Source of the DNA: Chloroflexota bacterium
GTDB taxonomy: Bacteria > Chloroflexota > Limnocylindria > Limnocylindrales > CSP1-4
Length of the DNA: 33,100 bases
Assembly (NCBI GenBank): GCA_047519685.1
Contig: JAPVSP010000427.1
Span: 1 to 33,100, forward strand
Direction of reading: 5' to 3'
The notes beneath the pieces were generated by a model. The model was not told where the DNA came from, searched no databases, and saw nothing but the letters and a program-made list of their open reading frames with translations. Shown piece after piece: positions 824-30,583 of the stretch. The number at the start of each line of letters is the position of its first letter. The first letter of the stretch is position 1. A program made the translations under genes and the position numbers.

Positions 824-1025
824 CGGCGCCGGGCCGGGGACGAATGGCGTCTCCCGGCTCGCCCGTGGACGGTCGCCGAGGGGGCGACCGCGATCGGCGA
901 TCCAGGGGATCCGCCGGCGCCCCCCGTCGTCCGGCCTCACGCGAGGGTCCTCGACGTCACTACCATGGGGCCAGCGCGCGGGAGCCCGCCCGCACGTCGA
1001 AGGGCGATCGAGAAGGGAGTCCCGG

Positions 1026-2033: not shown

Positions 2034-2065
2034 CCGGGCCCTGCCCTCAGCCGCGCGAGGTCGGG

Positions 2066-2090
2066 GCCGCCGGCCGCGGTCGCCGGCGGC
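2066..2090. terminator. Stem-loop between convergent genes (possible bidirectional terminator)
   Basis: GCCGCCGGC (2066-2074) / loop CGCGGTC / GCCGGCGGC (2082-2090), a perfect 9-bp stem. It lies between the stops at 2033 (+) and 2103 (-). No U-tract. Confidence 0.4.
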
Positions 2091-2102
2091 GGCCGCCGTC
2101 CG

Positions 2103-3026: not shown

Positions 3027-3044
3027 CCCCTCCTCCCGGCCTGA

Positions 3045-3073
3045 CCCGCGGGCCGCCTGACGCGGCCGGCGGG
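3045..3073 (-). other. Intercistronic stem-loop abutting the stop codon of the Zn-ADH gene
   Basis: Plus strand reads CCCGCGGGCCGC (3045-3056) / loop CTGAC / GCGGCCGGCGGG (3062-3073), giving 11 of 12 positions paired. It sits between the ADH stop (3074) and the RBS of the next gene. It could be a partial terminator or an mRNA-stability element. Confidence 0.35.
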
Positions 3074-5854: not shown

Positions 5855-5880
5855 CGGACCGAAGCCGTCCGGACGCTCGG

Positions 5881-8164: not shown

Positions 8165-8174
8165 GTCGCCCACG

Positions 8175-9266: not shown

Positions 9267-9290
9267 CGCCCGGTCCCTCATCCGCCGCAG

Positions 9291-10523: not shown

Positions 10524-10539
10524 GACCCGCCCGCCCTCC

Positions 10540-10568
10540 TTGTGCAACCGATTGCACGACGGTAGCAT
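10540..10568 (+). promoter_or_regulatory. Candidate sigma-70/SigA-type promoter for the 865-aa protein gene
   Basis: TTGTGC (10540-10545), 17-nt spacer, TAGCAT (10563-10568). The operator palindrome lies inside the spacer. Hexamers matched by eye only. Confidence 0.3.
10542..10557. promoter_or_regulatory. LacI-family-type operator candidate (14/16 palindrome with central CG)
   Basis: GTGCAACCGATTGCAC has perfect 6-bp arms GTGCAA/TTGCAC. Its core TGCAACCGATTGCA fits the generic LacI/CcpA box pattern TGnAAnCGnTnnCA. It is the only such site I found in the window. It lies in the 85-bp divergent region between the aminotransferase-LacI operon and the 865-aa protein gene. Confidence 0.5.
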
Positions 10569-10588
10569 CCGGATTCGCACCGCGTCAA
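10559..10588 (-). promoter_or_regulatory. Candidate promoter for the aminotransferase-LacI-ABC operon
   Basis: On the minus strand: TTGACG (10588-10583), 18-nt spacer, TACCGT (10564-10559). The operator palindrome follows immediately, at about the +1 region. Confidence 0.3.
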
Positions 10589-10608
10589 TACCATTGGAGA
10601 CAGCGGGT

Positions 10609-13206: not shown

Positions 13207-13207
13207 C

Positions 13208-14080
13208 GTGAAGATCGCGCTCGACCCCTACATGCTCCGGGGTCTCCCGTTCGGGGAGGTCTGCCGGATCGCCGCCGACGTCGGCTACCGCTACATCGAG
13301 CTCTCGCCGCGGACCGACTTCATCCCGTTCTTCGTCCATCCGCGAGCCGATCGGTCGCGGATCGCCCACTTCCGGACGGCGCTCCGCGAGACCGGGATGG
13401 AGCTCTCGTCGATCCTGCCGCTCTATCGCTGGTCGAGCCCCGACGAGGACGAGCGGCTGGCCGCGGTCGGCTACTGGAGGCGGGCCATCCAGCTCGCCGT
13501 CGAGCTCGGCTGCCAGACGATGAACTCGGAGCTCAGCGGACGACCCGATCAGGCGGCCCGCTCCGAGGCCCAGTTCTGGCGGTCGCTCGACGAGCTCCTG
13601 CCGATCTTCGAGCGCGAGGGGATCGTCCTCGACCTCGAGCCCCACCCCGACGACTTCGTCGAGCTCAACGATCCGGCCGTGGACCTCGTCCGGGGCATCG
13701 ATTCGCCGAGCGTTCGCTACGTCTTCTGTGCGCCGCACACGTTCCACCTCGGCGGCGAGGTCGGGGCGATGATCCGCTACGCCGCGCCGGTCCTCGCGCA
13801 CGTCCACCTCGCCGACGTGTTCGATCACCGCGCCTCGTCCGGCCTCCGCTACATCGTCAATCCGCCCGGCTCGACGGCCCGGGTCCACCAGCACCTCGAC
13901 ATCGGTCAGGGCGAGGTCGACTGGGACGCGCTGTTCGCTGCGCTCGCCGAGATCCGCTTCGACGGGATCCTGACGAGCTGCGTCTTCGCCTGGGAGGAGC
14001 GCGCCGTCGATTCGGCGAGGTTCATGCTCGAGGAGATCCAGCGGCGCCTGTCGAAGGCCGCCGCAGCGGGCCAGGTCTAG
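13208..14080 (+). CDS. Xylose-isomerase-like TIM-barrel protein (sugar phosphate isomerase/epimerase family), second copy of the fold in this locus
   Basis: 290 aa from GTG 13208, which is 1 nt after the upstream TGA. RBS GGGAGGTGG overlaps the end of the upstream gene. Motifs YIELSPR, LDLEPHPDDFV, HVHLADV, HLDIGQGEVDW. Confidence 0.85.
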   Translation: MKIALDPYMLRGLPFGEVCRIAADVGYRYIELSPRTDFIPFFVHPRADRSRIAHFRTALRETGMELSSILPLYRWSSPDEDERLAAVGYWRRAIQLAVELGCQTMNSELSGRPDQAARSEAQFWRSLDELLPIFEREGIVLDLEPHPDDFVELNDPAVDLVRGIDSPSVRYVFCAPHTFHLGGEVGAMIRYAAPVLAHVHLADVFDHRASSGLRYIVNPPGSTARVHQHLDIGQGEVDWDALFAALAEIRFDGILTSCVFAWEERAVDSARFMLEEIQRRLSKAAAAGQV

Positions 14081-15036
14081 GCGCCGGCCGGGGACCGCAT
14101 CGCCGAAAGGCGCTCGAGGGTCTGGCCATCGAACGGCGCCGGCCAGTCGAAGATCGCCTCGCTCGCGCCGGCGGCCGCGTAGGCGTCGAGCAGGTCCGCG
14201 ACCGCCGACGCCGTGTCGGCGAACGGCGAGCTCTCGGCCCAGGCATGGGCATCGCCCGCGCCGGCCGTGTGGGGCGTGAGCCGGATGGCCAGCGCCTCGA
14301 CGGCCGCCTCCCGGGTATCGCGGATGCACACGGGTGGCAGCCCCACCGTCCGTCGGATGGACGATGGAGCGCGCCCGACGTCGGAGCAGCGGAGGTCGAG
14401 CGCCGCGTTCCGCCGCGCGTAGGCCTCGGGATCGCCCTCGCCGTTCCAGACGTCGGCGTAGCGGGCGACGATCGGCAGCGTCCGCCGCTCGCCGCTGCCG
14501 CCGATGAGGAGCGGCAGGCGTGCCTGGACGGGCGGCGGGTCGTTGCGTGCCGCCTCCATCGCGACCCAGCGGCCCGCGAGCGTGACCGTCCGGCCATCGA
14601 GCAGTCCGCGGACGACGGTGGCCGTCTCCTCGAGCCGGTCGAGCCGCTCGGCCAGGCGGGGGAACGGGTACCCGAACGCCCGGTGCTCTCGCTCGTGCCA
14701 TCCGGCGCCCAGCCCGAGGACCGCCCGACCGCCGCTCAGGTGGTCGAGCGCGGTCGCCATCTTGACCAGCAGGCCCGGATCCCGGTAGGCGGCGCCGCTG
14801 ACGAGGCAGCCCAGCCGGATCCGCGTCGTCGCCGCCGCCCATCCGGCCAGCGTCATCCACGCCTCGAAGACCGGGCCGTCCTGCCCCGTCACGGGCCCCT
14901 GGCCGGCCCCCGCGATCGGGTAGAAGTGGTCGTTCGCCCACAGGCTGTCGAACCCGGCGGCCTCGATCGCCCGGCCCGCGGCCATCAGATCGGCCCACGC
15001 GACGGCCTGCCCCCAGACCTGGAAGCCGATCAACAT
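14077..15036 (-). CDS. Luciferase-like monooxygenase (LLM) class oxidoreductase, probably F420-dependent
   Basis: 319 aa from MLIGFQVWGQ. LLM hallmarks FDSLWANDHF, LGLGAGWHEREH, LLIGGSGERR. The stop overlaps the stop of the convergent gene (CTAG at 14077-14080). The track ORF to 15435 is an over-extension. Confidence 0.85.
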   Translation of the reverse strand: MLIGFQVWGQAVAWADLMAAGRAIEAAGFDSLWANDHFYPIAGAGQGPVTGQDGPVFEAWMTLAGWAAATTRIRLGCLVSGAAYRDPGLLVKMATALDHLSGGRAVLGLGAGWHEREHRAFGYPFPRLAERLDRLEETATVVRGLLDGRTVTLAGRWVAMEAARNDPPPVQARLPLLIGGSGERRTLPIVARYADVWNGEGDPEAYARRNAALDLRCSDVGRAPSSIRRTVGLPPVCIRDTREAAVEALAIRLTPHTAGAGDAHAWAESSPFADTASAVADLLDAYAAAGASEAIFDWPAPFDGQTLERLSAMRSPAGA

Positions 15037-15379
15037 CTTCGGGTGCTCACCGCTCGTGTGTCGTCCCGACCTCGCCGGTCGTCCGTGAACCCGGCTGAGC
15101 AGCGATCGGCCCGGTCGAGGCCGCATCGGAGCGTCGACTCGCATGCGACAGTAGCGCCCCGCCCCGTCGTCGTCGAGCCCGAGTCGGGCGACCGGCGATC
15201 TGCGCCGCGCGCCCGCATGCCATCCCGCCCGACCCGTCGAGCCGGATGCCCCTGTGCGCCCGGTGCGGCCAGCCGCACGATCGGAGTTCGCGGCACCATC
15301 GAGGCGGATGCCCGGCGCCGCGCGGACCGGGGCCGGAGGCGGCCCGGGGGCTCCTGGGACAGCAGGAAGAAGGGACGAG

Positions 15380-16528
15380 ATGAGCGTGTCGACCGTCGCC
15401 TCTGGGAAGCAGGCGGATCTCGCCGGTCCGGGCATCGGGGACTATGCGGAGCTCGAGAAGGTCCTGCCGACGGACTACCGGTCGATCCTCGACCCACGCC
15501 AGACCCAGGAGGCCATCTACGCGGTCAAGGGCTACATCGAGGAGCATCTCTGCCGCGAGCTCGGTCTCCAGATGGTCCAGGTCCCGCTCATCGTCGACGT
15601 CGAGTCGGGCGTCAACGACATGCTCGACCGCGACGGCTCCCGTACGCCGATCCAGTTCCACATCTCGAACGACTACGACAAGCACCCGATCGACGCCCAG
15701 GTCGTCCAGGCCGCCACGAAGTGGAAGCGCGTCGCGCTCCGGCAGTTCGGGATGGGCGTCGGCGAGGGCATCTGCACCGACATGCGCGCGGTCCGGAAGG
15801 ACTACTTCCTCGATCACGACCACAGCATCTACGTCGACCAGTGGGACTGGGAGCGGGTCATCCGGCCGGAGGACCGCGACCTGCGCTACCTCAAGGATGT
15901 CGTCCGAACGATCTGGCGGGTCCTCCGCGGCGCCGAAGCGGATGTCCAGGCGCGCTTCCCGCAGCTGCGGACGGACCGCTACCCGGACCTGCCCGAGGAG
16001 CTGGCCTTCCTGCACGCCGAGGACATCCTGGCCCGCTATCCGGACCTGCCCCGCAAGCAGCGCGAGACGCGCATCCTCCAGGAGTTCGCGGCGGTCTTCA
16101 TCATCGGGATCGGCTGGACGCTCGCCGACGGCTACCCGCACGAGATGCGGGCCGCCGACTACGACGACTGGATCACCGAGACCCGGTCCGAGGACGGTCG
16201 GCCGATGCACGGCCTCAACGGCGACATCCTCGTCTGGAACCCGGTGACGCGTCGGCGTCACGAGCTCTCATCGATGGGCATCCGGGTGGATGCGGACTCG
16301 CTCCGCAGGCAGCTCGAGATGACGGGCCAGCTCGACTGGCTCCGCCTCCCCTACCACTCCGCGATCGTGAGCGGGGAGGTGCCGCTGAGCATCGGCGGCG
16401 GCATCGGTCAATCGCGGACCCAGATGCTGCTGCTCAAGAAGGCCCACCTGGGTGAGGTCAGCGTGACCGTCTGGCCGCGGATCCTCAAGGACATGTGCGC
16501 CGCGAGGGGCATCCACGTCCTCGAGTAG
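15380..16528 (+). CDS. asnA: Aspartate--ammonia ligase (asparagine synthetase A)
   Basis: 382 aa from MSVSTVAS, with GAAGGGA RBS. Long collinear similarity to E. coli AsnA recalled from memory: SIYVDQWDWERV, RYPDL, IGIG, DYDDW, GLNGDILVWNPV, ELSSMGIRVDADSL, GGGIGQSR. Confidence 0.9.
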   Translation: MSVSTVASGKQADLAGPGIGDYAELEKVLPTDYRSILDPRQTQEAIYAVKGYIEEHLCRELGLQMVQVPLIVDVESGVNDMLDRDGSRTPIQFHISNDYDKHPIDAQVVQAATKWKRVALRQFGMGVGEGICTDMRAVRKDYFLDHDHSIYVDQWDWERVIRPEDRDLRYLKDVVRTIWRVLRGAEADVQARFPQLRTDRYPDLPEELAFLHAEDILARYPDLPRKQRETRILQEFAAVFIIGIGWTLADGYPHEMRAADYDDWITETRSEDGRPMHGLNGDILVWNPVTRRRHELSSMGIRVDADSLRRQLEMTGQLDWLRLPYHSAIVSGEVPLSIGGGIGQSRTQMLLLKKAHLGEVSVTVWPRILKDMCAARGIHVLE

Positions 16529-17590: not shown

Positions 17591-18685
17591 TCAGTTGCCG
17601 CCCTCGTTGAGCGTGACGGTCGCCTTCGTCCAGGAAGCGCCCTTCGTGTCGGTCCCCGACGGGAGCGCGTCGAGCGCCGCCTTCGCCAGGTCGGTCTGGT
17701 ACGCACCGTCGGTCGGCTTGCTCTTCAGGACGCCGTACTTTGTCGCGATGTCCACCGTCTGGTTCCAGGCGGTCTGATCGAGCTGGCCGATGCCGTTCGG
17801 CGACGGCCAGATCAGCCCGTTGATCTCGTTCATCTGCCAGGTCTGGTGGCTCTTGCCGAGCTTCGACCCGTTCTTGATGACGATGTCGACGCAGGCGGCG
17901 GCGTTGTCGCGGCAGTAGATCCAGCCGCGGTAGCTCGCCTTGATGAACTTCGTGGCGATGTCCTTGTTGGTGCCCGTGGACAGCCACTTCGCCGAGGCGA
18001 AGATCATGTCCTGGAGCATCCCGGTGCCGACATCGTTGAGGTTGATGACGTTGAGGTCGGACGGCTGGTACAGATTGCCCGTCGTCGGGTTCTTCGCCTC
18101 GAGGACCTGCGCGTACTCGTTGTAGATCATGGCCTGGGCCGCATCGAGGTCGCCCGACAGCAGCCCGGACATGTCGAAGTTCTGCTTGATGACGCTGACG
18201 TCCTTCGTCGGGTCGAGGCCGACCTTGGCCATCGCCGCGAACACCTCGGGCTCATTGCCGAGCAGCCAGCTGCCGACCTTCTTGCCCTTCCAGTCCTCGG
18301 GCTTGGTGATGTTCTTGCCCTTGAAGGACACCTCCAGCGTGCCGGAGCGCTGGAAGATCTGGGCGATGTCCACGAGGTCCGTGCCGCCCTCGCGGGAGGC
18401 GAGCATCTTGGGGACCCAGGTGGTCCCGATGTCGGCGCCACCCGATGCCACGACGCTCATCGGGTTGATGTCCGGGCCACCGAGGAGGATCTTGACGTCG
18501 AGACCCTCGTCCTTGAAGTAGCCCTGATCCAGCGCGGCGTAGTAGCCCGCGAACTGCGCCTGGGCGACCCACTGGAGCTGGAACTTGACCGTGGTCAGCG
18601 TCCCACTCCCCCCGCTCGAGCTGCAGGCCCCAACCAGCAGCGCGGCGCCGGTGGCCAGCGCGATCGCCGACCGAGGCATCTTCAT
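17591..18685 (-). CDS. ABC transporter substrate-binding lipoprotein, NMT1/THI5/ThiY-like (NitT/TauT family)
   Basis: 364 aa from MKMPRSAIALATGAALLVGAC (lipobox). Very strong RBS GGAGGAGGAGGAG. Mature part FQLQWVAQAQFAGYYAALDQGYFKDEGLDV is typical of the NMT1/SsuA-like fold. The track ORF to 18913 is an over-extension. Confidence 0.85.
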   Translation of the reverse strand: MKMPRSAIALATGAALLVGACSSSGGSGTLTTVKFQLQWVAQAQFAGYYAALDQGYFKDEGLDVKILLGGPDINPMSVVASGGADIGTTWVPKMLASREGGTDLVDIAQIFQRSGTLEVSFKGKNITKPEDWKGKKVGSWLLGNEPEVFAAMAKVGLDPTKDVSVIKQNFDMSGLLSGDLDAAQAMIYNEYAQVLEAKNPTTGNLYQPSDLNVINLNDVGTGMLQDMIFASAKWLSTGTNKDIATKFIKASYRGWIYCRDNAAACVDIVIKNGSKLGKSHQTWQMNEINGLIWPSPNGIGQLDQTAWNQTVDIATKYGVLKSKPTDGAYQTDLAKAALDALPSGTDTKGASWTKATVTLNEGGN

Positions 18686-18804
18686 GAGCGCTCCTCCTCC
18701 TCCTCGTGCCCCAACGGACCGGGATAGCGTCGGATGATAGCGGCCCGGGACGCTGCCCGAAGCCCGCAGCCGCCGTCCGCGGGCGAACCGGCCGCCGTCC
18801 GGGC

Positions 18805-19638
18805 TCAGGCGGAGCGAGCCGAGGCGTGCCAGGGGATGGCGATCCGCTCCGCTCCCAGGACGAGCAGGTACAGGCCGACACCGAGGGCACAGGCCATGAG
18901 GATGCCCGCCCAAGCGTTGGGGTAGCGGAAGAGGCCGGCCTCCTGGGTGATGTAGATCCCGAGGGCCTTGCGCGGACCGCCGAAGTACTCCCCGACGACG
19001 GCACCGATGACCGCCAGGGTGGCCGACACCTTCAGACCGGTGAACAGGAAGGGCAGCGCGTTCGGGATCCGGACCTTCACGAGGATCTCGCCATCGCTCG
19101 CGGCGTACGAGCGCATGAGCTCCAGGGCCGAGGCATCGACGGTCGTCAGCCCACGCACGACGTTGATCATCATCGGGAAGAAGACCATGAGCGCGACGAT
19201 GGTCATCCGGGCGAACGGGCTCTCCGAGCTGAACCAGTTGTCCGTGATCGGCGCGAACGCGATGATCGGGATGGAGTTCGCGGCCGCGGCGATCGGCATG
19301 AGGGACTCACGCGCTGACGCCCAGCGCGAGGTCGCGAACGCGACGCCGATGCCCAGGATCGAGCCGATGATGAGGCCTCCGATGGCCTCGATGCCCGTGA
19401 AGACGACCCCGTCGCCGAGGCTCGGCCACTGGTCGACGAGCGCCGCCACGATGACCGAGGGCCGCGGCAGCAGGAACGTCTGGACCCCCAGGACGGCGAG
19501 CGTCAGCTCCCAGGCGACGATGACCGCGAGGAACACGGCGATCGCCGGGAGCGCATCGAGCGCGCGCGCCCGGGCCCGGAGCGCGAGGTCGATCGGCGAG
19601 TTCCGGCGAGCCGGGCCGGCGACCGTCCGCACGGTCAC
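18805..19638 (-). CDS. ABC transporter permease (NitT/TauT family), second permease gene
   Basis: 277 aa from GTG 19638, which overlaps the ATPase stop as GTGA. TM-rich. EAA region ELMRSYAASDGEILVKVRIPNALPFL. Confidence 0.85.
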   Translation of the reverse strand: MTVRTVAGPARRNSPIDLALRARARALDALPAIAVFLAVIVAWELTLAVLGVQTFLLPRPSVIVAALVDQWPSLGDGVVFTGIEAIGGLIIGSILGIGVAFATSRWASARESLMPIAAAANSIPIIAFAPITDNWFSSESPFARMTIVALMVFFPMMINVVRGLTTVDASALELMRSYAASDGEILVKVRIPNALPFLFTGLKVSATLAVIGAVVGEYFGGPRKALGIYITQEAGLFRYPNAWAGILMACALGVGLYLLVLGAERIAIPWHASARSA

Positions 19639-20528
19639 GAGAGGCCCTCCGCCAGGACCCTGGCGGCCGCGTCTGCCTCCGACCCGTCCGGCTCGTACCG
19701 TCGGAGCGCCTCGCGGACCTCGGTGACGAGCTCGAAGTAGCGCTCGGTCTCTCGCGTCTCGGCCGTTCGTGGCTGGGGCAGGTCGACCTCGACGATCCGC
19801 GAGACGCGACCGGGCCGGGCCGACATGACGACGACGCGCGTCGAGAGGAAGACGGCCTCCGGGATCGAGTGGGTGACGAACACCACGGTCACCTCGGTCT
19901 CGTTCCAGATCCGCATGACCTCGAGGTTCAGGCGCTCGCGGGTCATCTCGTCGAGGGCACCGAACGGCTCGTCCATGAGGATGAGCTTGGGGTCGAACGC
20001 GAGGGCCCGGGCGATGGCGACCCGCTGCTGCATGCCGCCGGACAGCTGCCAGGGGTAGCGCATCCCGAACTCGGGCAGCTCGACGAGCGAGAGCAGCCGC
20101 CGGGCGCGCTCGCGGCGCTCCTCCCTCGAGTAGCCCATGACCTCGAGCGGCAGCTCGACGTTGCGCTCCACCGTCCGCCAGTCCATCAGGACCGGCGCCT
20201 GGAAGACCATCCCGTAGTCGCGATCGCGCCGAGCCTGGGGCGCCGCCTTGCCGTTGACCCGGACCGTCCCGGTCGTCGGCTGGATGAGGTCGCCGATGAG
20301 TCGCAGGAGCGTCGACTTCCCGCACCCGGACGGACCGATGAGCGAGACGAACTCGCCGGCGCGGATGGTCAGGTCGATGCCGTCGATCGCCGTGACGGAC
20401 CCGGCGGCGGCCCCGAACGTCTTGGTCACACCGCCGATCTCGACGACCGGTCGGTTGGCGGCGAGGCCGGCCGGCCGCTCCCCGAGGGCGTTCCGCTGCG
20501 GGTCGGACCCAGGTCGCGTCTCGGTCAT
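19635..20528 (-). CDS. ABC transporter ATP-binding protein (NitT/TauT family)
   Basis: 297 aa from MTETRPG. Walker [10 protein letters not shown], signature [15 protein letters not shown], Walker [14 protein letters not shown]-loop FVTHS. Confidence 0.9.
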
Positions 20529-20550
20529 GATCTCCGTCCTCGGGGGTGGA

Positions 20551-21483
20551 TCAGCCAACGGGCCGGTACCGGCCACGCATGAACAGTCGCTCGGCGAGGG
20601 CGACCAGACCGACGAACACCAGGCCGAGCGCGGCGGCCACGAAGATCGTCGCCCAGAGGTCGTACGGCGCCGAGGTGTAGTACTGGTTGTAGTTGAGGAT
20701 GGAGCCACCGAGCCCGTACGGGATCCCGGAGGGCAGCTCCCCGATGATCGCGCCGATGACGCTCGCCGAGGCCGAGATCCGGAGCGCCGGGAAGAGGTAC
20801 GGCACGGCCGTGGGCAGCCGCAGCTTCCAGAGGATCTCGCGCGGGGTCGCGGCGTACGAGCGCATGAGCTCGAACGCGCGCGGGTCGGCGGCTCGGAGGC
20901 CGCGCAGCATCGCGATCGTCACCGGGAAGAACGTCAGGTAGGTCGTGACGACGGCGACCGATGTCCAGCCCGCTCCGAGGAAGACGACGATGAGCGGGGC
21001 GAGCGCGATGATCGGCACCGTCTGCGAGGCGACGACCCAGGGCACGAACGAGCGCTCGAGCAACCGCGAGTGGACGAAGATCACGCTGAGGACGAGCCCC
21101 AGCATGGCCCCGATGAGGAACCCGACGAAGGCCTCCTGGAAGGTGAAGAGCGCCGCGCCGACGAGATCGGCGGCGAGCGACGTCCCCTGCGCCGTGTGCT
21201 GGAGATAGGCGTTGGCGATATCCCAGACGTGCGGGAGCGACAGGTCGTTGGCGATCCGCAGCGTGAACGGCGGTACGTGCTCGTAGTCGATCCGGAGCCC
21301 AAGCACCGTGCCATGGATCCGCCAGGGATCGCCGGCCAGCCACTTGAGGCCTTCCCAGACGACGAGCAGGGCGGCCACGATGACGACGATCCCGAGGCGG
21401 CGCCGGACGGGGGTCGTGCCGCCGCCCGGAAGCCCCTCGATGGTCGGCCGGGCTCGCCGGAGCGGGCGGCTGGCCGAGACCAC
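20551..21483 (-). CDS. ABC transporter permease (NitT/TauT family), first permease gene
   Basis: 310 aa from GTG 21483, which is 5 nt after the upstream TAG at 21489-21491. TM-rich. EAA region ELMRSYAATPREILWKLRLPTAVPYL is paralogous to the second permease. Confidence 0.8.
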   Translation of the reverse strand: MVSASRPLRRARPTIEGLPGGGTTPVRRRLGIVVIVAALLVVWEGLKWLAGDPWRIHGTVLGLRIDYEHVPPFTLRIANDLSLPHVWDIANAYLQHTAQGTSLAADLVGAALFTFQEAFVGFLIGAMLGLVLSVIFVHSRLLERSFVPWVVASQTVPIIALAPLIVVFLGAGWTSVAVVTTYLTFFPVTIAMLRGLRAADPRAFELMRSYAATPREILWKLRLPTAVPYLFPALRISASASVIGAIIGELPSGIPYGLGGSILNYNQYYTSAPYDLWATIFVAAALGLVFVGLVALAERLFMRGRYRPVG

Positions 21484-21488
21484 GCGCG

Positions 21489-22826
21489 CTAGGCCCCGAT
21501 GGCCCGGTCGACGAGATCGAGCCCGCGATCGATGACCTCGAAGCCCTCGGCCAGCTGCTCCTCGGTGATGCACAGCGGCGGGTTGGTGTGGATCGAGTTG
21601 TTGGCGATCATCGTGTACAGGCCGTTCTCGCGGAGGAACCGGCCGATGGCCTTCATCTCGTCGCTCGTGCCGTTGAACGGGGTCAGCGGGGTGAACGGGT
21701 CGCGGCTTCGGACGAGGTCCAGGATGCCGAACAGGCCCAGGCTCCGGTGCGCACCGACCGAGGGATGCCTCCGGTAGAGCCGCTCGTGGTGCTCTCGCAT
21801 GACCGGCCCGAGCCGCGCGGCATGCTCGATGAGGCCGTCCTCCTCGTAGACGCGGATCGTCGCGAGCGCGGCGGCCAGGCTGACGGGGTGGCTGCTGTAG
21901 GTCAGGCCGCCATAGAACATCATCGACTCGAACTTCTCGGCGATGTGGTGGCGCATCGCCACGGCGCCCAGCGGCAGGTACGAGCTGGTCAGGCCCTTCG
22001 CCATGGTCATGAGGTCCGGGACGACCCCCCAGTTGTCCACGGCGAACCAGCGGCCGGTCCGGCCGAAGCCGGCCATGACCTCGTCGCAGACCATCAGGAT
22101 GCCGTTCCGGTCGCAGATCTCTCGAACGCCCTGCAGGTAGCCGTCGGGCGGGATGAGGATCCCGTTCGTGCCGACGATCGTCTCCAGGAAGACCGCGGCG
22201 ATCGTGTGAGCGCCCTCGTAGCGGATGACGTCCTCGAGTCCCTGCAGCGACTCCGCGACCGGGCGGGGCTCCTTCTCGCCCCAGCGGTGGGTGTCCGGGT
22301 AGCGCACGACGCCGACGAGCCCGGGCTCGTTGGCCCAGCGGCGGGGGTCGCCGGTCAGCGTCATCGCGCCCATCGTCGCCCCGTGGTACGAGCGGTAGCG
22401 GGCGAGGACCTTGTAGCGGCCGGTGTAGTGGCGCGCCAGCTTGATCGCGTTCTCGACCGCCTCGGCCCCGCCGAGCGTGAAGAAGACCTTGTCGAGGTCG
22501 CCCGGCATGATCTCGGCCAGCTTCGCGCCGAGCCGTGCCCGAACCTCGGTCGTGAAGGCCGGCTGGACGAACTCGAGCTTGAGCGCCTGCTCGGTGATCG
22601 CGTCGATGACCCGTCGGTCACCGTGGCCGATGTTCACCGACATCAGCTGCGCGTTGAAATCGAGGATCCGCTTGCCTTCGGGCGTGTACAGGTAGACGCC
22701 CTCGGCGCGATCGATCGCGATCGGGTCGAGCGCGCCCTGGACCGACCACGAGAAGAGCGTGTGGGCGCGGCTGAGCGCGACGATCTCCTCGCTGGTCATC
22801 GCCTCGCTGGCGGTGCTGATACCCAT
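21489..22826 (-). CDS. Class-III (omega-amino acid) PLP aminotransferase; beta-alanine / beta-aminoisobutyrate transaminase candidate
   Basis: About 445 aa. FTLGGAEAVENAIKLAR, CDEVMAGFGRTG, PLP-lysine context LMTMAKGLTSSY. Start ambiguous: ATG 22826 is preferred (purine-rich GAGAGAGGTGGAG upstream); GTG 22835 is possible. Confidence 0.9.
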   Translation of the reverse strand: MGISTASEAMTSEEIVALSRAHTLFSWSVQGALDPIAIDRAEGVYLYTPEGKRILDFNAQLMSVNIGHGDRRVIDAITEQALKLEFVQPAFTTEVRARLGAKLAEIMPGDLDKVFFTLGGAEAVENAIKLARHYTGRYKVLARYRSYHGATMGAMTLTGDPRRWANEPGLVGVVRYPDTHRWGEKEPRPVAESLQGLEDVIRYEGAHTIAAVFLETIVGTNGILIPPDGYLQGVREICDRNGILMVCDEVMAGFGRTGRWFAVDNWGVVPDLMTMAKGLTSSYLPLGAVAMRHHIAEKFESMMFYGGLTYSSHPVSLAAALATIRVYEEDGLIEHAARLGPVMREHHERLYRRHPSVGAHRSLGLFGILDLVRSRDPFTPLTPFNGTSDEMKAIGRFLRENGLYTMIANNSIHTNPPLCITEEQLAEGFEVIDRGLDLVDRAIGA

Positions 22827-23175
22827 CGACTCCACCTCTCTCGGCCGGGCTGGGCGGCATCCGAACGGTGAGCCCGGGGCCGGTCGGAGGCTGGCGCTCA
22901 GGGGCCGGAGCCGGAGCTCGCGGGGCGGCGGGGCCGCCGCGATAGGTCCGCATTACAGCACATCGCGACCCGCCTGACGCGCTCAGTGCCGCTCGGGTCG
23001 TCCGCCAGCGCGACGCCTCTCGCGCGATGCGAGCCGGGGTCCGAGTCGCCTCCCGCGGTGTAGACTCCCTCGATCATGCGACCCGCGTGGCGGACCGGTC
23101 GGGCGCGGCCCCGCTCGCGGGGCCCATGGCCTCGGCTGCCAGCCGCCCGAAGGCTCCTTCCTGGAGGTGACACGA

Positions 23176-24024
23176 ATGCCCCGTATCGTCCGAGGCGCCC
23201 TCCTGCAGGCCACCTGGACCGGCGACAAGGAGTCGATGATCCAGAAGCACGAGGGATACGCTCACGAGGCGGCCAAGCAGGGCGCCCAGGTGATGCTCTT
23301 CCAGGAGCTCTTCTACGGTCCCTACTTCTGCCAGGTCCAGGACGCGTCCTACTACTCGTACACGGAGCACATCCCCGACGGCCCCACGACCAGGCGGATG
23401 CAGGATCTCGCGAAGCAGACCGGGATGGTCCTCGTCGTGCCGATCTACGAGGAGGACGAGCGCGCGTCCGGGATCTACTACAACACCGCGGCGGTCATCG
23501 ACGCCGACGGGTCGTACCTCGGCAAGTACCGCAAGACGCACATCCCGCACGTCAAGGGGTTCTGGGAGAAGTTCTACTTCCGTCCGGGGAACCTCGGGTA
23601 CCCGGTCTTCCAGACCGCGGTCGGCCGCGTCGGCGTCTACATCTGCTACGACCGCCACTTCCCCGAGGGCGCGCGGGCCCTCGGCCTCAACGGCGCCGAG
23701 ATGGTCTTCATCCCGAGCGCGACGAGCCGCGGCCTCTCGGAGTACATCTGGCGGATCGAGCAGGTCAGCCACGCGGTGGCCAACGGCTACTTCGTCGGGA
23801 CGATCAACCGGGTCGGCATCGAGCCGCTCGGCGAGGACGACTTCTACGGACAGAGCTACTTCTGCGATCCTCGCGGGCAGTTCATCGGCGCCGTCGGGAG
23901 CCCCTACGACGAGGAGCTGCTGGTTCGCGACATGGACCTCGATCTCATCTCCGAGGTCCGCCAGACCTGGCAGTTCTTCCGCGACCGGCGGCCAGACGCC
24001 TACGACGACCTCGTCGCCCCGTAG
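23176..24024 (+). CDS. Carbon-nitrogen hydrolase (nitrilase superfamily), beta-ureidopropionase / N-carbamoyl-beta-alanine amidohydrolase type
   Basis: 282 aa from ATG 23176 (RBS GGAGG 8 nt upstream). Catalytic E-K-C triad contexts MLFQELF, GKYRKTHIP, VYICYDRHFPE. Confidence 0.85.
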   Translation: MPRIVRGALLQATWTGDKESMIQKHEGYAHEAAKQGAQVMLFQELFYGPYFCQVQDASYYSYTEHIPDGPTTRRMQDLAKQTGMVLVVPIYEEDERASGIYYNTAAVIDADGSYLGKYRKTHIPHVKGFWEKFYFRPGNLGYPVFQTAVGRVGVYICYDRHFPEGARALGLNGAEMVFIPSATSRGLSEYIWRIEQVSHAVANGYFVGTINRVGIEPLGEDDFYGQSYFCDPRGQFIGAVGSPYDEELLVRDMDLDLISEVRQTWQFFRDRRPDAYDDLVAP

Positions 24025-24102: not shown

Positions 24103-25116
24103 ATGCAGTTCGGATTCACGCTCAAGCCGGACCACTCGATCGAGCGGACGCTGGCCCTGACCCGCCAGGCCGAGGCGGCCGGCTTCGCCTACGGCTGGCT
24201 GTTCGATTCCCATGTCCTGTGGCGCGACCCGTACCCCCTCCTGACGCTGATGGCCCGCGAGACCGAACGGCTGCGGCTGGGGACGTGTGTCACCAACCCC
24301 GCGACACGGGAGCCGACGGTCACGGCCTCGGCGCTCGCGGCGCTCGACGAGCTGAGCGGCGGCCGGATGGATCTCGGGATCGGCCGGGGCGACTCCGCCC
24401 GGCGCGTCCTCGGCAAGCCACCGACGACGATGGCGACCCTCGAGGAGGCCATCCGCGTCATCAAGGATCTCGTCGAGGGCCGGCCGACGCTGTACGAGGG
24501 CACGGAGCTCTCCCTGACCTGGACAGGGCGCTGGCGGCTGCCGGTCTGGGTCGCCGGCTACGGGCCGATGGCGCTGGCGATGACCGGGCGCGTGGCCGAC
24601 GGGCTCATCCTCCAGCTGGCCGACCCGGATCTCATCCGCTGGTTCGTGAGCCAGATGCGCGAGGCGGCCGCCGGAGCCGGGCGCGATCCGGCTGCCATCA
24701 GGGTCCAGGCGGCCGCACCGGCCCACATCGGCTCGCTCGAGCATTGCCGGGATCGCACGCGCTGGTTCCCGGCCCTGGTGTCGAACCACGTCGTGGACCT
24801 GGTGAACAAGTACCCCCGCGAGCAGCTGCCGGAGTCGCTGACCGGCTACATCCGCAGCCGGACGGGCTACGACTACCTCCATCACGCCGAGGTCGGCTCG
24901 GCCAACGCGGCGTTCGTCGGCGACGAGGTGACGGACCGCTTCTGCGTCCTTGGATCGCCCGCGGACCACATCGCCAAGCTGCACGCGCTCGCCGACGCCG
25001 GCGTCGACCAGTTCAACATCTACCTGATGAACGGCGAGGAGGAGGAGCAGCTCGAGGTCTACGGCCGCGAGATCATCCCGTCCTTCCGCGCCGCAGCCGG
25101 AGCCCCGACCGGGTAG
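24103..25116 (+). CDS. Luciferase-like (LLM) oxidoreductase, Mer-like / probably F420-dependent
   Basis: 337 aa from MQFGFTLK (RBS CGGAG 7 nt upstream). LLM hallmarks GFAYGWLFDSHVLW, MDLGIGRGDSARR, PVWVAGYGP, ADGLILQLADP. It lies between the CN-hydrolase and dihydropyrimidinase genes, in the same strand and frame. Confidence 0.85.
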   Translation: MQFGFTLKPDHSIERTLALTRQAEAAGFAYGWLFDSHVLWRDPYPLLTLMARETERLRLGTCVTNPATREPTVTASALAALDELSGGRMDLGIGRGDSARRVLGKPPTTMATLEEAIRVIKDLVEGRPTLYEGTELSLTWTGRWRLPVWVAGYGPMALAMTGRVADGLILQLADPDLIRWFVSQMREAAAGAGRDPAAIRVQAAAPAHIGSLEHCRDRTRWFPALVSNHVVDLVNKYPREQLPESLTGYIRSRTGYDYLHHAEVGSANAAFVGDEVTDRFCVLGSPADHIAKLHALADAGVDQFNIYLMNGEEEEQLEVYGREIIPSFRAAAGAPTG

Positions 25117-25283
25117 AGCCCCTCCAGTTGCCCGGGCCCCGGTGCCCGGGTGCACCGGAGTCGCAGACCGGCGATCGGTGAGGTGCGGTCCGGTGCGGCT
25201 CGTAGCCCGACCGGCCGGCTGGACTCCGGGACCCCCTGGGGGCGCAGACTGAGGGGGATCGAGCCAGTGATCGGAGGGTCCGG

Positions 25284-25529
25284 ATGTCCATGTCCGAGCG
25301 CCTGCACCTGCCAGCGCGCGCCCGCCGCGATCCCTGGTGGGACGTCGAGGGCCGCTCCGTCCGGAACCGGCGGCGCGTCCGCCGCTCGCTGGCCCTGAGC
25401 GTGCTGGCCGCGACGGTCCTCCTCGTCGGGACGGCCACTCGAAGCCCTGATGTGCAGCGGGGCGCCGCCGTGGCCGCCGACCTCGCCGCCGCGGGCCTCT
25501 CCAGCCTCGAGCAACGGGCGACCCGCTGA
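25284..25529 (+). CDS. Hypothetical small protein (81 aa) with one predicted transmembrane/signal-anchor helix
   Basis: RBS GGAGGG 5 nt upstream of the ATG. Almost every codon ends in G/C in this frame. Arg-rich stretch RNRRRVRR is followed by the hydrophobic SLALSVLAATVLLVGTA. No recognisable family. Could also be the 5' remnant of a decayed gene. Confidence 0.4.
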   Translation: MSMSERLHLPARARRDPWWDVEGRSVRNRRRVRRSLALSVLAATVLLVGTATRSPDVQRGAAVAADLAAAGLSSLEQRATR

Positions 25530-25740
25530 GCCCGGTCGCCCGGGGGCTGGCGCCGACCGTGCCCACACCCCCACCGACGACGACCGCGGCGGCGGGGGCG
25601 TCGGCAGGCGCTCGGCCGCGCTCCGCCCTGGGTGGCCTGCACCCACGAGGCGATCCGCGGGGTCCTCCGCTGGCCGCCGCGCGGCGTATCCTCAGCGCCA
25701 GAGTCGCGGAGCGCGAGCGCCGCAGGCATGGAGGAGTCGC

Positions 25741-27138
25741 ATGCGCACGCTCATCACGAACGGCACGATCGTCACCGCCGACGGCTCCTACCGTGCCGAC
25801 GTCCTCGTCGACGGCGAGACGATCGCGGCGATCGGCGCCGACCTGGCCGCGCAGGGCATGACCGCCGACCAGACGATCGACGCGGCCGGCAGGTACGTCA
25901 TCCCCGGGGCGATCGACGCCCACACCCACTTCGAGCTTCCGTTCGGGGGCACGTTCGCGAAGGACACCTTCGAGACCGGCACCCGGGCGGCGGCCTTCGG
26001 CGGGACGACGTCGGTCATCGACTTCGCCGTCCAGTCCAAGGGCAAGACGCTGCGCGAGGGCCTCGACATCTGGATGGCCAAGGCCGAGGGCCACGCGCTC
26101 ATCGACTACGGCTTCCACATGATCATGAGCGACGTGACGGACGATTCGCTCAAGGAGATGGACCGCTTCGTCGCCGAGGGCATCCCCGACTTCAAGCTGT
26201 TCACCGCGTACCCGGGCGTGTTCTTCAGCGACGACGCCTCGATCTTCCGGGCGATGCAGCAGTCGGCCCGGAACGGCGGGCTGATCATGATGCACGCCGA
26301 GAACGGCCCGGCCATCGACGTCGTGGCGGCCGAGTACGTGGCCGAGGGCAAGACCGACCCCTACTGGCACGGCGTCGTCCGTTTCCCGGTCTTCGAGGGC
26401 GAGGCGACCAACCGGGTCATCCGCCTGGCCGAGGCGGCCGGGGCGCCCGTCTACATCGTCCACCTCTCGGCGCGCGACGCGCTGAACGAGGTCCGGGCGG
26501 CGCGCGACCGCGGGACGAAGGCCTTCGCCGAGACCTGCCCGCAGTACCTGTTCCTGTCGCTCGACGACCTGGGCAACGGCTTCGAGGGCTCCAAGTTCGT
26601 CTGCTCGCCGCCGCTGCGGCCGGCCGACCACCAGGTCGACCTGTGGACCGGCCTCATCAAGGACGACCTGCAGCTCGTCTCCACCGACCACTGCCCGTTC
26701 GACTTCCACGGCCAGAAGGAGCTCGGCCGGGGCGACTTCCGGAAGATCCCGAACGGGCTGCCGGCGGTCGAGGACCGGGTCGACCTGATGCACGATGGCG
26801 GCGTGGTCGGGGGGCGGATCACCAAGGAACGCTGGGTCGAGGTCGTCTCGACGGCACCGGCCAGGATGTTCGGGATGTACCCCAGGAAGGGCGCGATCGC
26901 GGTCGGCGCGGACGCGGATATCGTGATCTACGACCCGGACCGGAAGCACACCATCAGCGCCCGAACGCATCATATGGACGTCGACTACTCGTGCTACGAA
27001 GGCCGGGTGGTCCAGGGGGGCTCGGACGTCGTGATGTCGCGAGGGACGGTCATCGTGCGCGACGGCCAGTGGCTCGGGCCGGCCGGCCACGGCAGGTTCG
27101 TGAAGCGGTCCCCGGCCGACTACGTCCGGACGGCCTGA
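25741..27138 (+). CDS. hydA: Dihydropyrimidinase / D-hydantoinase (cyclic amidohydrolase)
   Basis: 465 aa from MRTLITNG (RBS GGAGGAG). Metal ligands in the expected order: IDAHTHFELP (HxH), DFKLFTAY (carboxylated Lys), MHAENG, YIVHLS, VSTDHCPF. The track ORF from 25450 is an over-extension. Confidence 0.9.
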   Translation: MRTLITNGTIVTADGSYRADVLVDGETIAAIGADLAAQGMTADQTIDAAGRYVIPGAIDAHTHFELPFGGTFAKDTFETGTRAAAFGGTTSVIDFAVQSKGKTLREGLDIWMAKAEGHALIDYGFHMIMSDVTDDSLKEMDRFVAEGIPDFKLFTAYPGVFFSDDASIFRAMQQSARNGGLIMMHAENGPAIDVVAAEYVAEGKTDPYWHGVVRFPVFEGEATNRVIRLAEAAGAPVYIVHLSARDALNEVRAARDRGTKAFAETCPQYLFLSLDDLGNGFEGSKFVCSPPLRPADHQVDLWTGLIKDDLQLVSTDHCPFDFHGQKELGRGDFRKIPNGLPAVEDRVDLMHDGGVVGGRITKERWVEVVSTAPARMFGMYPRKGAIAVGADADIVIYDPDRKHTISARTHHMDVDYSCYEGRVVQGGSDVVMSRGTVIVRDGQWLGPAGHGRFVKRSPADYVRTA

Positions 27139-27303: not shown

Positions 27304-27627
27304 ATGTACGTGACCCTCGTCCATATCCACGTCCGGCCGGAGCACCTGGAGCCGTTCGTCGACGCCACGCGGGCCAATCACGAGGCGTCGATCCGCGAGC
27401 TCGGCAGCGTCCGCTTCGACGTCCTCCGCTCGGTCGAGGATCCGACGCGCTTCATCCTCTACGAAGCGTACGTCGACGAGGCGGCCGCCCGCGCCCACAA
27501 GGAGACGCTGCACTACCTCGCCTGGCGCGACGCGGTGGCGGACTGGCTGGTGGAGCCTCGACACGGCGAGCGCTACGACGGGCTCTTCCCCGACATCCCG
27601 GATCCGCACCCGCCGGCCGGGCGGTGA
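27304..27627 (+). CDS. ABM-domain protein (antibiotic-biosynthesis-monooxygenase / YgiN-LsrG-like ferredoxin fold)
   Basis: 107 aa. MYVTLVHIHVRPEHLEPFVDATRANHEASIRELGSVRFDVLRSVEDPTRFILYEAYVDEAAARAHKETLHY fits the ABM dimeric alpha/beta-barrel pattern. RBS GGAGG is upstream. Confidence 0.75.
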   Translation: MYVTLVHIHVRPEHLEPFVDATRANHEASIRELGSVRFDVLRSVEDPTRFILYEAYVDEAAARAHKETLHYLAWRDAVADWLVEPRHGERYDGLFPDIPDPHPPAGR

Positions 27628-28853
27628 ATCCGGCCCCGAGCGCCGGGGTCGCGGCCCTCCCGGCGTTCACGGTCGCCCGGCTGCCGCGGATCGAGTTCGG
27701 GCCCGGCCGGTTCTCGGTCGTCCCCGAGGCGGTCGCGCGCCACGGCCAGCACGTCCTGCTCGTGACCGGCGGACGGTCGTTCCGGGCGAGCGGCCGCTGG
27801 GAGGGGCTCGTCGCGGCGCTCGACGGGATGGGCATCGCCCACGAGGAGCTGCGGGTCGAGGGCGAGCCGTCGCCCGATTCCGTGGACGAGGCCGTCGCTC
27901 GCTTCCGAGGCGGGCGGATCGACGTCGTCCTGGGGATCGGCGGCGGCAGCGCGCTCGACACGGCGAAGGCCGTCGCCGGCCTGCTCGCGACCGGGACGTC
28001 GGCCCGGGACCACCTGGAGGGCGTTGGTCCGGGGCTCCCCTACCCGGGCCCGGCGACGCCGTTCATCGCCGTCCCGACCACCGCCGGCACCGGCAGCGAG
28101 GCGACGAAGAACGCCGTCCTGAGCGTCCGCCGCGAAGGCGGCTTCAAGCGCTCGTTCCGCGACGAGCGGCTCGTGGCGCGTGAGGCCATGATCGACCCGG
28201 ACCTGCTGGTCGGCTGCCCGCCAGCGCTCATCGCCGCCGACGGGCTGGATGCCCTGACCCAGCTGCTCGAGTCGTACGTCTCGCTGGGGGCCGGCCCGTT
28301 CACCGACGCGCTCGCGCTGAGCGGGCTCGAGGCCGCCCGGGACGGCCTGCTCGAATGGCATCGGGCGGCCGTCGAGGGCGCCGACGCGCCCGACGGGCGC
28401 GTCCGGATGGCGTACGCCGCGCTGCTCTCGGGGATCTGCCTCGCTCAGGCCGGGCTGGGCGCGGTCCACGGGTTCGCCGCGGCCCTGGGGGCCTACTTCC
28501 CCATCCCCCACGGTGCCGCGTGCGGCGCGACCCTCGTCGCGGCGGTCGAGGCGAACCTCGCCGCCCTCGAGGCGCGCGAGCCGGCGAGCCCGGCGCTCGA
28601 ACGGTATGCGCGGCTCGGCCGGCTGCTCGGCCGGCTCCCGGAGGGGACGCCCGGTCCGGAGGCCCGGCGCACGCTGGTGGAGCGGCTCGGAGCCTGGACC
28701 GGAGCGCTGCGCATCCCTGGCCTCGCGGCCCACGGCGTCGGGAGCCGGGACGTCGAGCGGCTCGTCGGGGCGAGCCGCGGAAGCAGCATGCGGACGAACC
28801 CGATCGCACTCCGCGACGACGAGCTGGCCGCGATCCTGGAGCGGAGTCTCTGA
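27624..28853 (+). CDS. Iron-containing (group III) alcohol dehydrogenase; candidate malonic/methylmalonic semialdehyde reductase
   Basis: 409 aa. The GTG start overlaps the ABM stop (GTGA). Fe-ADH motifs GIGGGSALDTAKA, PTTAGTGSE, and His-rich metal-site region AVHGFAAALGAYFPIPHGAACG. Confidence 0.85.
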   Translation: MNPAPSAGVAALPAFTVARLPRIEFGPGRFSVVPEAVARHGQHVLLVTGGRSFRASGRWEGLVAALDGMGIAHEELRVEGEPSPDSVDEAVARFRGGRIDVVLGIGGGSALDTAKAVAGLLATGTSARDHLEGVGPGLPYPGPATPFIAVPTTAGTGSEATKNAVLSVRREGGFKRSFRDERLVAREAMIDPDLLVGCPPALIAADGLDALTQLLESYVSLGAGPFTDALALSGLEAARDGLLEWHRAAVEGADAPDGRVRMAYAALLSGICLAQAGLGAVHGFAAALGAYFPIPHGAACGATLVAAVEANLAALEAREPASPALERYARLGRLLGRLPEGTPGPEARRTLVERLGAWTGALRIPGLAAHGVGSRDVERLVGASRGSSMRTNPIALRDDELAAILERSL

Positions 28854-28892: not shown

Positions 28893-30431
<1,539 letters not shown>

Positions 30432-30529
30432 CGTCGGGGACCTCTGCGACTGCTCCTCCCCGCTCGGGGGACGCTGTTGAGGCTGACACGATACCCTGTC
30501 GGGCCGCGTCACGGCCCCAGAAGGCATGG

Positions 30530-30562
30530 GAAGGCCCGCCCGGCGGGGCCGGGCGGGCCTTC
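30530..30562 (-). terminator. Strong hairpin downstream of the protease gene (terminator candidate)
   Basis: GAAGGCCCGCCCGGC (30530-30544) / loop GGG / GCCGGGCGGGCCTTC (30548-30562), a perfect 15-bp stem. It lies 22 nt after the stop at 30584. Only a weak U-tract follows. Confidence 0.6.
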
Positions 30563-30583
30563 GAGGCTCGGGTGAGCCGAGCG

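Follow-up and report, generated by a model that had tools for sequence, protein, structure and literature searches.

The DNA analysed here is a 33,100-nt stretch of a contig of a Chloroflexota bacterium (JAPVSP010000427.1, positions 1 to 33,100; hereafter the window), and the subject is a gene for a luciferase-like monooxygenase (LLM) that lies among genes of reductive pyrimidine degradation. The focal open reading frame (ORF) begins with an ATG at position 24103, ends with a stop codon at 25116 and has the motif GGAG 8 nt 5' of its start; the GC content of third codon positions (GC3) is 0.93, in a window of 72% GC. On the same strand, 78 nt upstream, is a CN-hydrolase gene predicted to specify beta-ureidopropionase; downstream is a dihydropyrimidinase gene. 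ORF and profile analysis bore out the ORF, the ribosome-binding site, the 78-nt gap and the two flanking hydrolases reported in an initial annotation of the window. That annotation overlooked three further components of the cluster: an aminotransferase, an ATP-binding cassette (ABC) transporter and a methylmalonate/malonate-semialdehyde dehydrogenase (MMSDH) encoded on the minus strand.

The genes of the cluster are collected in Table 1. Among proteins of known structure, the CN-hydrolase is related to N-carbamoylputrescine amidohydrolase (1e-60) and to beta-ureidopropionases (1e-50). Divergent from the hydrolase–LLM operon is the aminotransferase, which matches NCBIfam PRK06062 (520 bits) and has a taurine:2-oxoglutarate aminotransferase as its nearest PDB entry (1.8e-100). 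The cluster supplies a transporter together with steps 2 to 5, and therefore reductive pyrimidine catabolism is complete save for step 1: the LLM is the sole conserved enzyme of the cluster with no assigned role, and step 1 is the sole absent function. Extended Pyd clusters containing PydD, PydE and a semialdehyde dehydrogenase (MSDH) are already known, and the first step of the pathway occurs in three variants that differ in electron donor, namely NADPH (PydA/DPD), NADH (PreT-PreA) and ferredoxin (clostridial PydAc) (PMC7332683). Promoter, terminator, Rfam and tRNA scans of the cluster region found nothing.

Table 1. Features of the window; coordinates within the ABC operon are those of the longest ORFs, not refined starts.
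Feature	Position	Strand	Assignment and evidence
Focal LLM oxidoreductase	24103-25116	+	337 aa; TIGR03842, F420 class; predicted F420H2:uracil/thymine reductase (step 1)
CN-hydrolase	23176-24024	+	Predicted beta-ureidopropionase (PydC, step 3); PF00795, E=1e-62
Dihydropyrimidinase / D-hydantoinase	25741-27138	+	PydB, step 2; TIGR02033, 567 bits (cutoff 393)
Class-III (omega) aminotransferase	21489-22835	-	Predicted beta-alanine / beta-aminoisobutyrate aminotransferase (PydD-like, step 4); PF00202, E=4e-86
MMSDH, CoA-acylating	28893-30431	-	Step 5; TIGR01722, 722 bits (cutoff 448); ATG at 30431
ABC transporter operon	17591-21573	-	Predicted pyrimidine uptake; PF00528, PF00005, PF09084
ABC permease	20551-21573 (longest ORF)	-	Part of ABC operon
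ABC ATPase	19635-20708	-	Part of ABC operon
ABC permease, second	~18805-19640	-	Part of ABC operon
NMT1/THI5-type binding protein	17591-18913	-	Part of ABC operon
ABM-domain (LsrG-like) protein	27304-27627	+	Accessory; PF03992; NF007791, 89 bits, below cutoff
Iron-containing alcohol dehydrogenase	27624-28853	+	Accessory; PF00465, PF25137; no NCBIfam equivalog reached
Second LLM	14077-15435	-	TIGR03560 (F420 class), 239.9 bits (cutoff 231.4)

Pfam scans of the large ORFs of the window revealed no dihydroorotate dehydrogenase (DHODH)-like, ferredoxin or PreT-like domain, and a six-frame tblastn search of the window with E. coli PreA and PreT gave no match. The same probes had no match in approximately 175 related neighbourhoods (1.5 Mb and 0.74 Mb, ~2.2 Mb in all), so that the lack of a canonical step-1 enzyme, first remarked on for the window, extends to these neighbourhoods. 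The probes are sensitive, because in a control they recovered distant targets, namely the PreA proteins of Deinococcus, Bacillus, Burkholderia and Sinorhizobium (39-45% identity) and even ordinary DHODH (28%). By contrast, the canonical cluster of Deinococcus holds preT-preA beside hydA (preT-like-preA...hydA-ABC).

The only Pfam domain of the focal protein is PF00296 (Bac_luciferase), which is matched with 212.5 bits (cutoff 27.9; E=1e-62) over residues 6-303 and profile positions 6-314 of 314. Against NCBIfam TIGR03842 (F420_CPS_4043) the protein scores 436.7 bits (cutoff 295.45) across the entire profile (positions 1-329 of 329). TIGR03842 is named 'LLM class F420-dependent oxidoreductase' and is a hypoth_equivalog, with no function given (NCBIfam release June 2026); NCBI applies the same name to orthologues in Actinomycetota, Leisingera and Paracoccus. 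At E<=1e-20 the focal protein has at least 7,999 relatives, and TIGR03842-type relatives number in the thousands in soil, freshwater and marine metagenomes.

Comparisons to characterized proteins place the focal LLM among F420-dependent enzymes. Its nearest PDB sequence in phmmer searches is Mer (1f07; E=7e-38, ~29% identity), with further matches to fHMAD (4e-16), Fgd (2e-13), Adf (1e-9) and luciferase (9e-8). The AlphaFold (AF2) model is an 8-stranded alpha/beta barrel (pLDDT 91.7, pTM 0.90), for which Foldseek gives a TM-score to Mer of 0.79-0.84. Foldseek ranks 1 to 29 are occupied throughout by F420-dependent LLMs (Mer, Fgd, fHMAD and Adf), and FMN-dependent LLMs start only at rank 30. 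The RutA model TIGR03612 (cutoff 498 bits) is absent from the best 25 of the 31 NCBIfam matches, which means that the focal LLM scores below ~27 bits on it. Both sequence and structure thus set the protein nearer to enzymes proven to use F420 than to the FMN-dependent LLMs, which fits the F420-dependent luciferase-like hydride transferases (LLHT), and the F420-class assignment of the initial annotation stands, given also the TIGR03842 membership and the proteobacterial cof-npdG operons described below.

The focal LLM is not Mer itself, since its scores against the Mer equivalogs TIGR03555 and NF002619 (145.4 and 156.4 bits) fall below their cutoffs (348.7 and 276, respectively). With the Mer structures (1f07, 1z69 and 8qpl) it has in common the fold, the VTNP and GxGxGD motifs and, presumably, the F420 site. 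It differs in context, which is pyrimidine catabolism in aerobic heterotrophs, and at some 20 family-specific positions, for example S36, W40, R95, R101, W140, Y153, R220-W221-F222, N228-H229 and Y256-D257-Y258-H261. Approximately 20 such polar or aromatic positions are at least 90% conserved among 13 non-redundant pyrimidine-linked orthologues. Confidence in the model is lower only for residues ~225-275, which correspond to a family-specific segment with the conserved R253, Y256-D257-Y258 and H261; judging from the model, this segment may form a mobile lid above the active site. The conserved H37 and D97 align with the region of the His/Glu(Asp) pair of Fgd/Adf-type enzymes and are candidate catalytic residues.

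With the focal protein as query, the nearest relatives of the window in the genome collection were metagenome-assembled genomes (MAGs) of Candidatus Limnocylindria (Chloroflexota) only, of which 80 species-level genomes were compared. A hydrolase lies upstream of the LLM at 67 of the 70 loci with at least 1 kb of upstream sequence and is directly adjacent in 41; a dihydropyrimidinase lies downstream at 43 of the 44 loci whose downstream flank reaches 8 kb or more. The aminotransferase is present at 39 of 46 loci with at least 9 kb upstream, and MMSDH, which also occurs in actinobacterial clusters, at 29 of 44. The placement of the LLM in the pyrimidine cluster is beyond chance.

Breadth beyond Limnocylindria was assessed by a search of 50% representatives, cluster look-ups, PLSDB and a metagenome scan seeded with the LLM of Leisingera. 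Linkage of the LLM to dihydropyrimidinase and ureidopropionase recurs in Chloroflexota, Actinomycetota and Proteobacteria; the co-occurrence of orthologues with hydA and a carbamoyl hydrolase, which the initial annotation had named as a check on its proposal, is therefore strongly positive in three phyla. In Ilumatobacteraceae (Actinomycetota; 46% identity) the order is CN_hydrolase-DHPase-Aldedh-LLM-ABC(NMT1), where DHPase denotes dihydropyrimidinase and Aldedh aldehyde dehydrogenase, with an aminotransferase nearby. An Actinomycetota MAG (49%) carries aminotransferase, Aldedh, DHPase and NMT1-ABC genes followed by an M20-type hydrolase that overlaps the LLM start: the type of ureidopropionase has been swapped and the LLM kept. 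Streptomyces rimosus and Streptomyces sp. BHT-5-2 (48-50%) have a CN_hydrolase, an aminotransferase and a DHPase-LLM pair with an 18-nt gap. Soil metagenome members (42-43%) show two arrangements, DHPase-LLM-CN_hydrolase and CN_hydrolase-DHPase-CN_hydrolase facing LLM-CN_hydrolase-SDR-M20. Further members, 39% and 50% identical, have as neighbours a cytidine/dCMP deaminase together with an M20 hydrolase, and an inosine-uridine nucleoside hydrolase; the deaminase and the nucleoside hydrolase are uracil-generating enzymes. An NMT1-type ABC system also adjoins the LLM in Ilumatobacteraceae, the Actinomycetota MAG, Cohaesibacter and metagenome loci. Across lineages, gene order and the type of ureidopropionase (CN-hydrolase or M20) vary and the LLM is constant. 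In the Leisingera-seeded metagenome scan 23 loci extend for 4 kb or more to either side of the LLM; 14 of them contain a dihydropyrimidinase and 16 any pyrimidine-pathway gene.

A side observation concerns S. rimosus, in which a DAO-family FAD oxidoreductase directly follows the DHPase-LLM pair (L094:11003-12136).

The proteobacterial loci add a link to the cofactor. F420 is an obligate hydride carrier with an E0' of -340 mV (PMC8498797). On plasmids of Leisingera caerulea and Paracoccus alcaliphilus the NCBI annotation gives the order cofG-cofH-cofD-cofC-cofE-npdG followed by the TIGR03842 LLM. An operon of cof genes and npdG that ends with the LLM occurs in Leisingera, Paracoccus, Cohaesibacter and Marinobacterium, and at about ten loci from marine metagenomes. 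The product of npdG in these operons (Fno) is an NADPH-dependent F420 reductase; at the proteobacterial loci no F420-dependent enzyme other than the LLM is encoded together with the genes for F420 synthesis and reduction. The pyrimidine genes are close at hand. In Leisingera the cof-LLM operon diverges from pntAB-aminotransferase-M20 hydrolase-hydA-NCS1 nucleobase permease; in Cohaesibacter the cof-Fno-LLM operon is flanked by DHPase, NMT1-ABC and M20 hydrolase genes, and in Marinobacterium arenosum by DHPase, NCS1 and M20. At one metagenome locus (L109) a single strand carries the order RutR-like TetR-cofGHDCE-npdG-LLM-M20-CN_hydrolase-NCS1-DHPase.

In E. coli, RutR is a repressor that responds to uracil and thymine. 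The TetR regulators that flank cofGHDCE-npdG-LLM in Leisingera (L090:13229-13861) and Marinobacterium (L181:3444-4076) contain PF08362, the YcdC/RutR C-terminal domain (147 and 170 bits), and have RutR as their top NCBIfam match (194 and 215 bits), leading by 50 orders of magnitude. As these scores lie below the RutR equivalog cutoff we refer to the regulators as RutR-like. From their position beside the cof-LLM operon one would expect pyrimidines to induce F420 synthesis in these bacteria. In the lineage of the window the evidence for F420 synthesis, whose presence in the host the initial annotation had also put forward as a check, is partial: at two of the 80 Limnocylindria loci (L045 and L080) cofD/C/E are encoded no more than 10 kb away from the cluster. 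The second F420-class LLM in the window (Table 1) fits an F420-using organism.

Two minor features of these regions may be recorded. The second LLM of the window adjoins an AsnA-type aspartate-ammonia ligase (15254-16528) and a xylose-isomerase-like TIM barrel protein (13184-14080). A DUF1330 protein is encoded at the cluster edge both in Leisingera (L092:17612-17905, by the NCS1 permease) and in Paracoccus alcaliphilus (L091:6083-6373, divergent from cofG).

On the basis of the conserved gene context in three phyla, and of the absence of PydA from the neighbourhoods, we propose that the focal LLM is an F420H2-dependent uracil/thymine reductase that replaces PydA, a reading to which we assign a probability of roughly 0.65. 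The enzyme would bind F420H2 and pass the C5 hydride directly onto C6 of uracil or thymine, while an acid of the protein would protonate C5 to give 5,6-dihydrouracil or dihydrothymine; the task of PydA/PreTA would thereby be accomplished without FMN, FAD or iron-sulfur clusters. The dihydropyrimidine would then pass through dihydropyrimidinase and the carbamoyl-amidohydrolase to beta-alanine or beta-aminoisobutyrate, and through the omega-aminotransferase and CoA-acylating semialdehyde dehydrogenase to acetyl- or propionyl-CoA. The base itself would be imported by the NMT1-type ABC system, and F420H2 would be regenerated by cellular F420 reductases, in proteobacteria by the Fno/NpdG of the same operon with NADPH. 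Substrate, reaction direction and catalytic residues are those that we infer; the reductive direction fits the adjacent Fno, which yields F420H2 at the expense of NADPH, and PntAB.

The proposed reaction, uracil or thymine to the 5,6-dihydropyrimidine, is that of PydA, as is the place in the cluster beside hydA and ureidopropionase (PMC7332683). The proteins have no kinship in sequence or fold: PydA consists of a DHODH-like FMN barrel and 4Fe-4S ferredoxin domains, in some cases joined by an FAD/NAD(P)H module, whereas the focal LLM is a single luciferase-like barrel with no Cys-cluster motifs and a predicted diffusible donor, F420H2. Precedent for the chemistry comes from antibiotic biosynthesis, in which genetics indicates that the uracil C5=C6 bond of mureidomycin is reduced by a putative F420/FMN oxidoreductase (PMC10714638). 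These proteins (NpsU of napsamycin and SSGG-03002 of mureidomycin biosynthesis) resemble the focal LLM in the chemistry ascribed to them; they belong to secondary metabolism, their substrate is a uridyl-peptide antibiotic, and activity in vitro was not reconstituted. A literature search returned no characterized LLM-type uracil reductase, in keeping with the initial annotation, and nothing on an F420-dependent dihydropyrimidine dehydrogenase or on the function of TIGR03842, which is still a hypoth_equivalog; coverage of subscription journals was thin and a prior description is possible. Pathway and reaction are known, but their realization by an unrelated enzyme family and cofactor is probably new, being absent from the literature that was found.

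Several observations weigh against this proposal. Known F420 enzymes of the LLM type act mostly on alcohols, carbonyls and imines, and reduction of C=C bonds is better documented for the split-barrel FDOR family. The absence of PydA/PreTA refers to the window and the ~2.2 Mb of neighbourhoods, and a canonical pydA/preTA may lie elsewhere in these genomes. In the window, 624 nt (25117-25740) separate the LLM from the dihydropyrimidinase, although this spacer is a local insertion because the two genes directly adjoin in several relatives; hydrolase, LLM and dihydropyrimidinase are contiguous in several Limnocylindria genomes. Seven of the 23 metagenome loci have no pyrimidine gene within reach. 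One family member (P0294, 45% identity; loci L086/L087) is found among hydantoinase A/B (oxoprolinase-type) and Bmp-type nucleoside ABC genes, in what looks, from its gene content, like a cluster for degradation of a different N-heterocycle, and another member has a sugar-like gene context. A proteobacterial-type sub-lineage with ~70% identity to the Leisingera LLM (metagenome and MAG contigs L110-L113) has no pyrimidine genes within 10 kb; the order at L112:3377-11002 is adenine-deaminase-like amidohydrolase, other LLM, CofE, FecCD/Peripla_BP_2-type ABC and then the LLM, a unit that might serve scavenging of F420 or FO with a different substrate. Because some members sit outside pyrimidine contexts, TIGR03842 may not be isofunctional.

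Loci L086/L087 also hold DUF1989, another LLM, an amidase, an isochorismatase and a cyclase.

These exceptions bear on the alternative that the LLM reduces some other N-heterocycle, such as a modified pyrimidine or the precursor of a hydantoin or imide, the cluster being one for utilization of hydantoin-type compounds. D-hydantoinases/dihydropyrimidinases and carbamoylases are promiscuous, which would permit such a role, and divergent members of the family stand beside hydantoinase A/B, amidases and the adenine-deaminase-like protein. There is also a parallel in Chloroflexota uricolytic clusters, where a putative F420 reductase of the luciferase family was proposed in 2025, on bioinformatic grounds, to act on 2,8-dioxopurine in the place where other bacteria have the PydA-like YgfK/UacX (PMC12507026). 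That pathway likewise combines a hydantoinase-family enzyme, an M20 peptidase and a Chloroflexota F420 LLM, and we considered it for the window; it is marked by SsnA, XdhD, YgeW and YgeX (PMC12507026). None of the four was found in Pfam scans of the window ORFs and an aminotransferase and MMSDH are present, for which reasons reductive uric acid degradation was rejected. The same two enzymes match the fates of beta-alanine and beta-aminoisobutyrate exactly, and related clusters carry NCS1 permeases, the RutR-like regulator, cytidine deaminase and nucleoside hydrolase, all of which argue for pyrimidines proper. We consider a different heterocycle unlikely.

Also improbable is a role for the LLM at another redox step of the pyrimidine pathway, for example as an F420-dependent malonic/methylmalonic-semialdehyde reductase (3-hydroxypropionate dehydrogenase), uracil being reduced by a canonical PydA/PreTA encoded elsewhere in the genome. 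Such a role would suit the known chemistry, since the characterized F420 LLMs, including Adf, Fgd and fHMAD among the PDB matches, are mainly alcohol and carbonyl oxidoreductases, and a PydA gene outside the neighbourhoods searched would have escaped detection. It is disfavoured because the semialdehyde step is already filled by MMSDH/Aldedh in the same clusters (in the window also by the iron-containing alcohol dehydrogenase) and because the tightest linkage of the LLM is with the pair of ring-opening hydrolases rather than with the aminotransferase. Moreover, some 175 neighbourhoods are without PydA, though canonical clusters hold preT-preA beside hydA.

A further luciferase-like protein that acts on uracil is RutA, and a RutR-like regulator lies near the LLM in Proteobacteria. 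It is nonetheless very unlikely that the focal LLM is a RutA-like FMN monooxygenase that attacks the ring oxidatively and makes no use of F420. RutA shares with the focal family the luciferase-like fold, uracil/thymine as (proposed) substrate and association with a RutR-type regulator, but it is an FMN/O2-dependent, ring-cleaving enzyme of another LLM subfamily (TIGR03612), outside the best 25 NCBIfam matches of the focal protein, which are dominated by F420-class models; the late appearance of FMN-dependent LLMs in the Foldseek ranking points the same way. The orthologues are co-operonic with a complete set of genes for F420 synthesis and with Fno, the clusters contain no flavin reductase or other rut gene, and oxidative ring cleavage would leave the dihydropyrimidinase without a substrate. 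The F420 class, the cof linkage and the coupling to dihydropyrimidinase together indicate a reductive route, not one of the RutA type. That the LLM is a mere passenger between pyrimidine genes in this lineage, as the 624-nt gap and variable insertions around the LLM in related genomes might suggest, is equally hard to credit, given that the linkage is kept across Chloroflexota, Actinomycetota and Proteobacteria despite reordering and swaps of the ureidopropionase.

If the focal LLM is a uracil/thymine reductase, then an iron-sulfur-free, single-subunit, F420-linked enzyme joins the three known donor variants of the first step of pyrimidine degradation, TIGR03842, a large family of unknown function, acquires one, and a gap is closed in metabolic reconstructions of the abundant Limnocylindria. 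Reduction of pyrimidines would also be the first role of F420 to be explained in the bacteria that carry this gene arrangement. Such an enzyme may also provide an oxygen-tolerant biocatalyst for reduction of uracil, thymine and fluoropyrimidines. Why Proteobacteria and Chloroflexi synthesize F420 is an open question, none of their F420 enzymes having been studied (2021 review, PMC8498797). With a cof-npdG-LLM operon tied to pyrimidine genes and to a RutR-like regulator, that question becomes directly testable in cultured strains of Leisingera, Cohaesibacter, Marinobacterium and Streptomyces rimosus. A wider interpretation, for which the gene arrangements leave us evenly divided, is that TIGR03842 constitutes a fourth, unrelated and F420H2-using type of dihydropyrimidine dehydrogenase, that the F420 operon and Fno of many marine Alpha- and Gammaproteobacteria mainly serve the TIGR03842 LLM under a RutR-like repressor, and that it is for the sake of pyrimidine catabolism that F420 is made by Proteobacteria and, in part, by Chloroflexota.

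The remaining genes around the cluster are less conserved. The genes for the ABM-domain protein and the iron-containing alcohol dehydrogenase, which lie 3' of the dihydropyrimidinase and are translationally coupled through a 4-nt overlap, occur at only one of the 80 related loci (L076), and we therefore regard the pair as a lineage-specific add-on; the dehydrogenase is possibly a malonic-semialdehyde reductase forming a PydE-like branch. In the spacer between LLM and dihydropyrimidinase is an 81-aa ORF (25284-25529, plus strand), rich in Arg and Ala and with one hydrophobic stretch. It has no Pfam match and no counterpart at the 80 related loci, and was dropped as a possible part of the system. 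The 523-aa ORF at 29004-30575 (plus strand) likewise has no Pfam match. It runs antisense to MMSDH and its tblastn matches are antisense to called Aldedh genes, and it was rejected as a conserved gene of unknown function; such antisense shadows are a typical trap of high-GC DNA and mimic a 'conserved unknown' in neighbourhood counts.

Elsewhere in the window, an 894-aa ORF (10522-13206, plus strand; GC3 0.93) matches no Pfam family at E<=0.01. At the 5' end it runs into the ORF of a DegT-type aminotransferase on the opposite strand (9291-11015), which implies that one of the two starts is overcalled. Positions 1-9300 are occupied by an unrelated cluster of sugar/inositol type, comprising a GFO/IDH/MocA oxidoreductase, xylose-isomerase-like barrels, a zinc-dependent alcohol dehydrogenase, an ABC sugar transporter whose binding protein has a TAT signal, and a LacI regulator.

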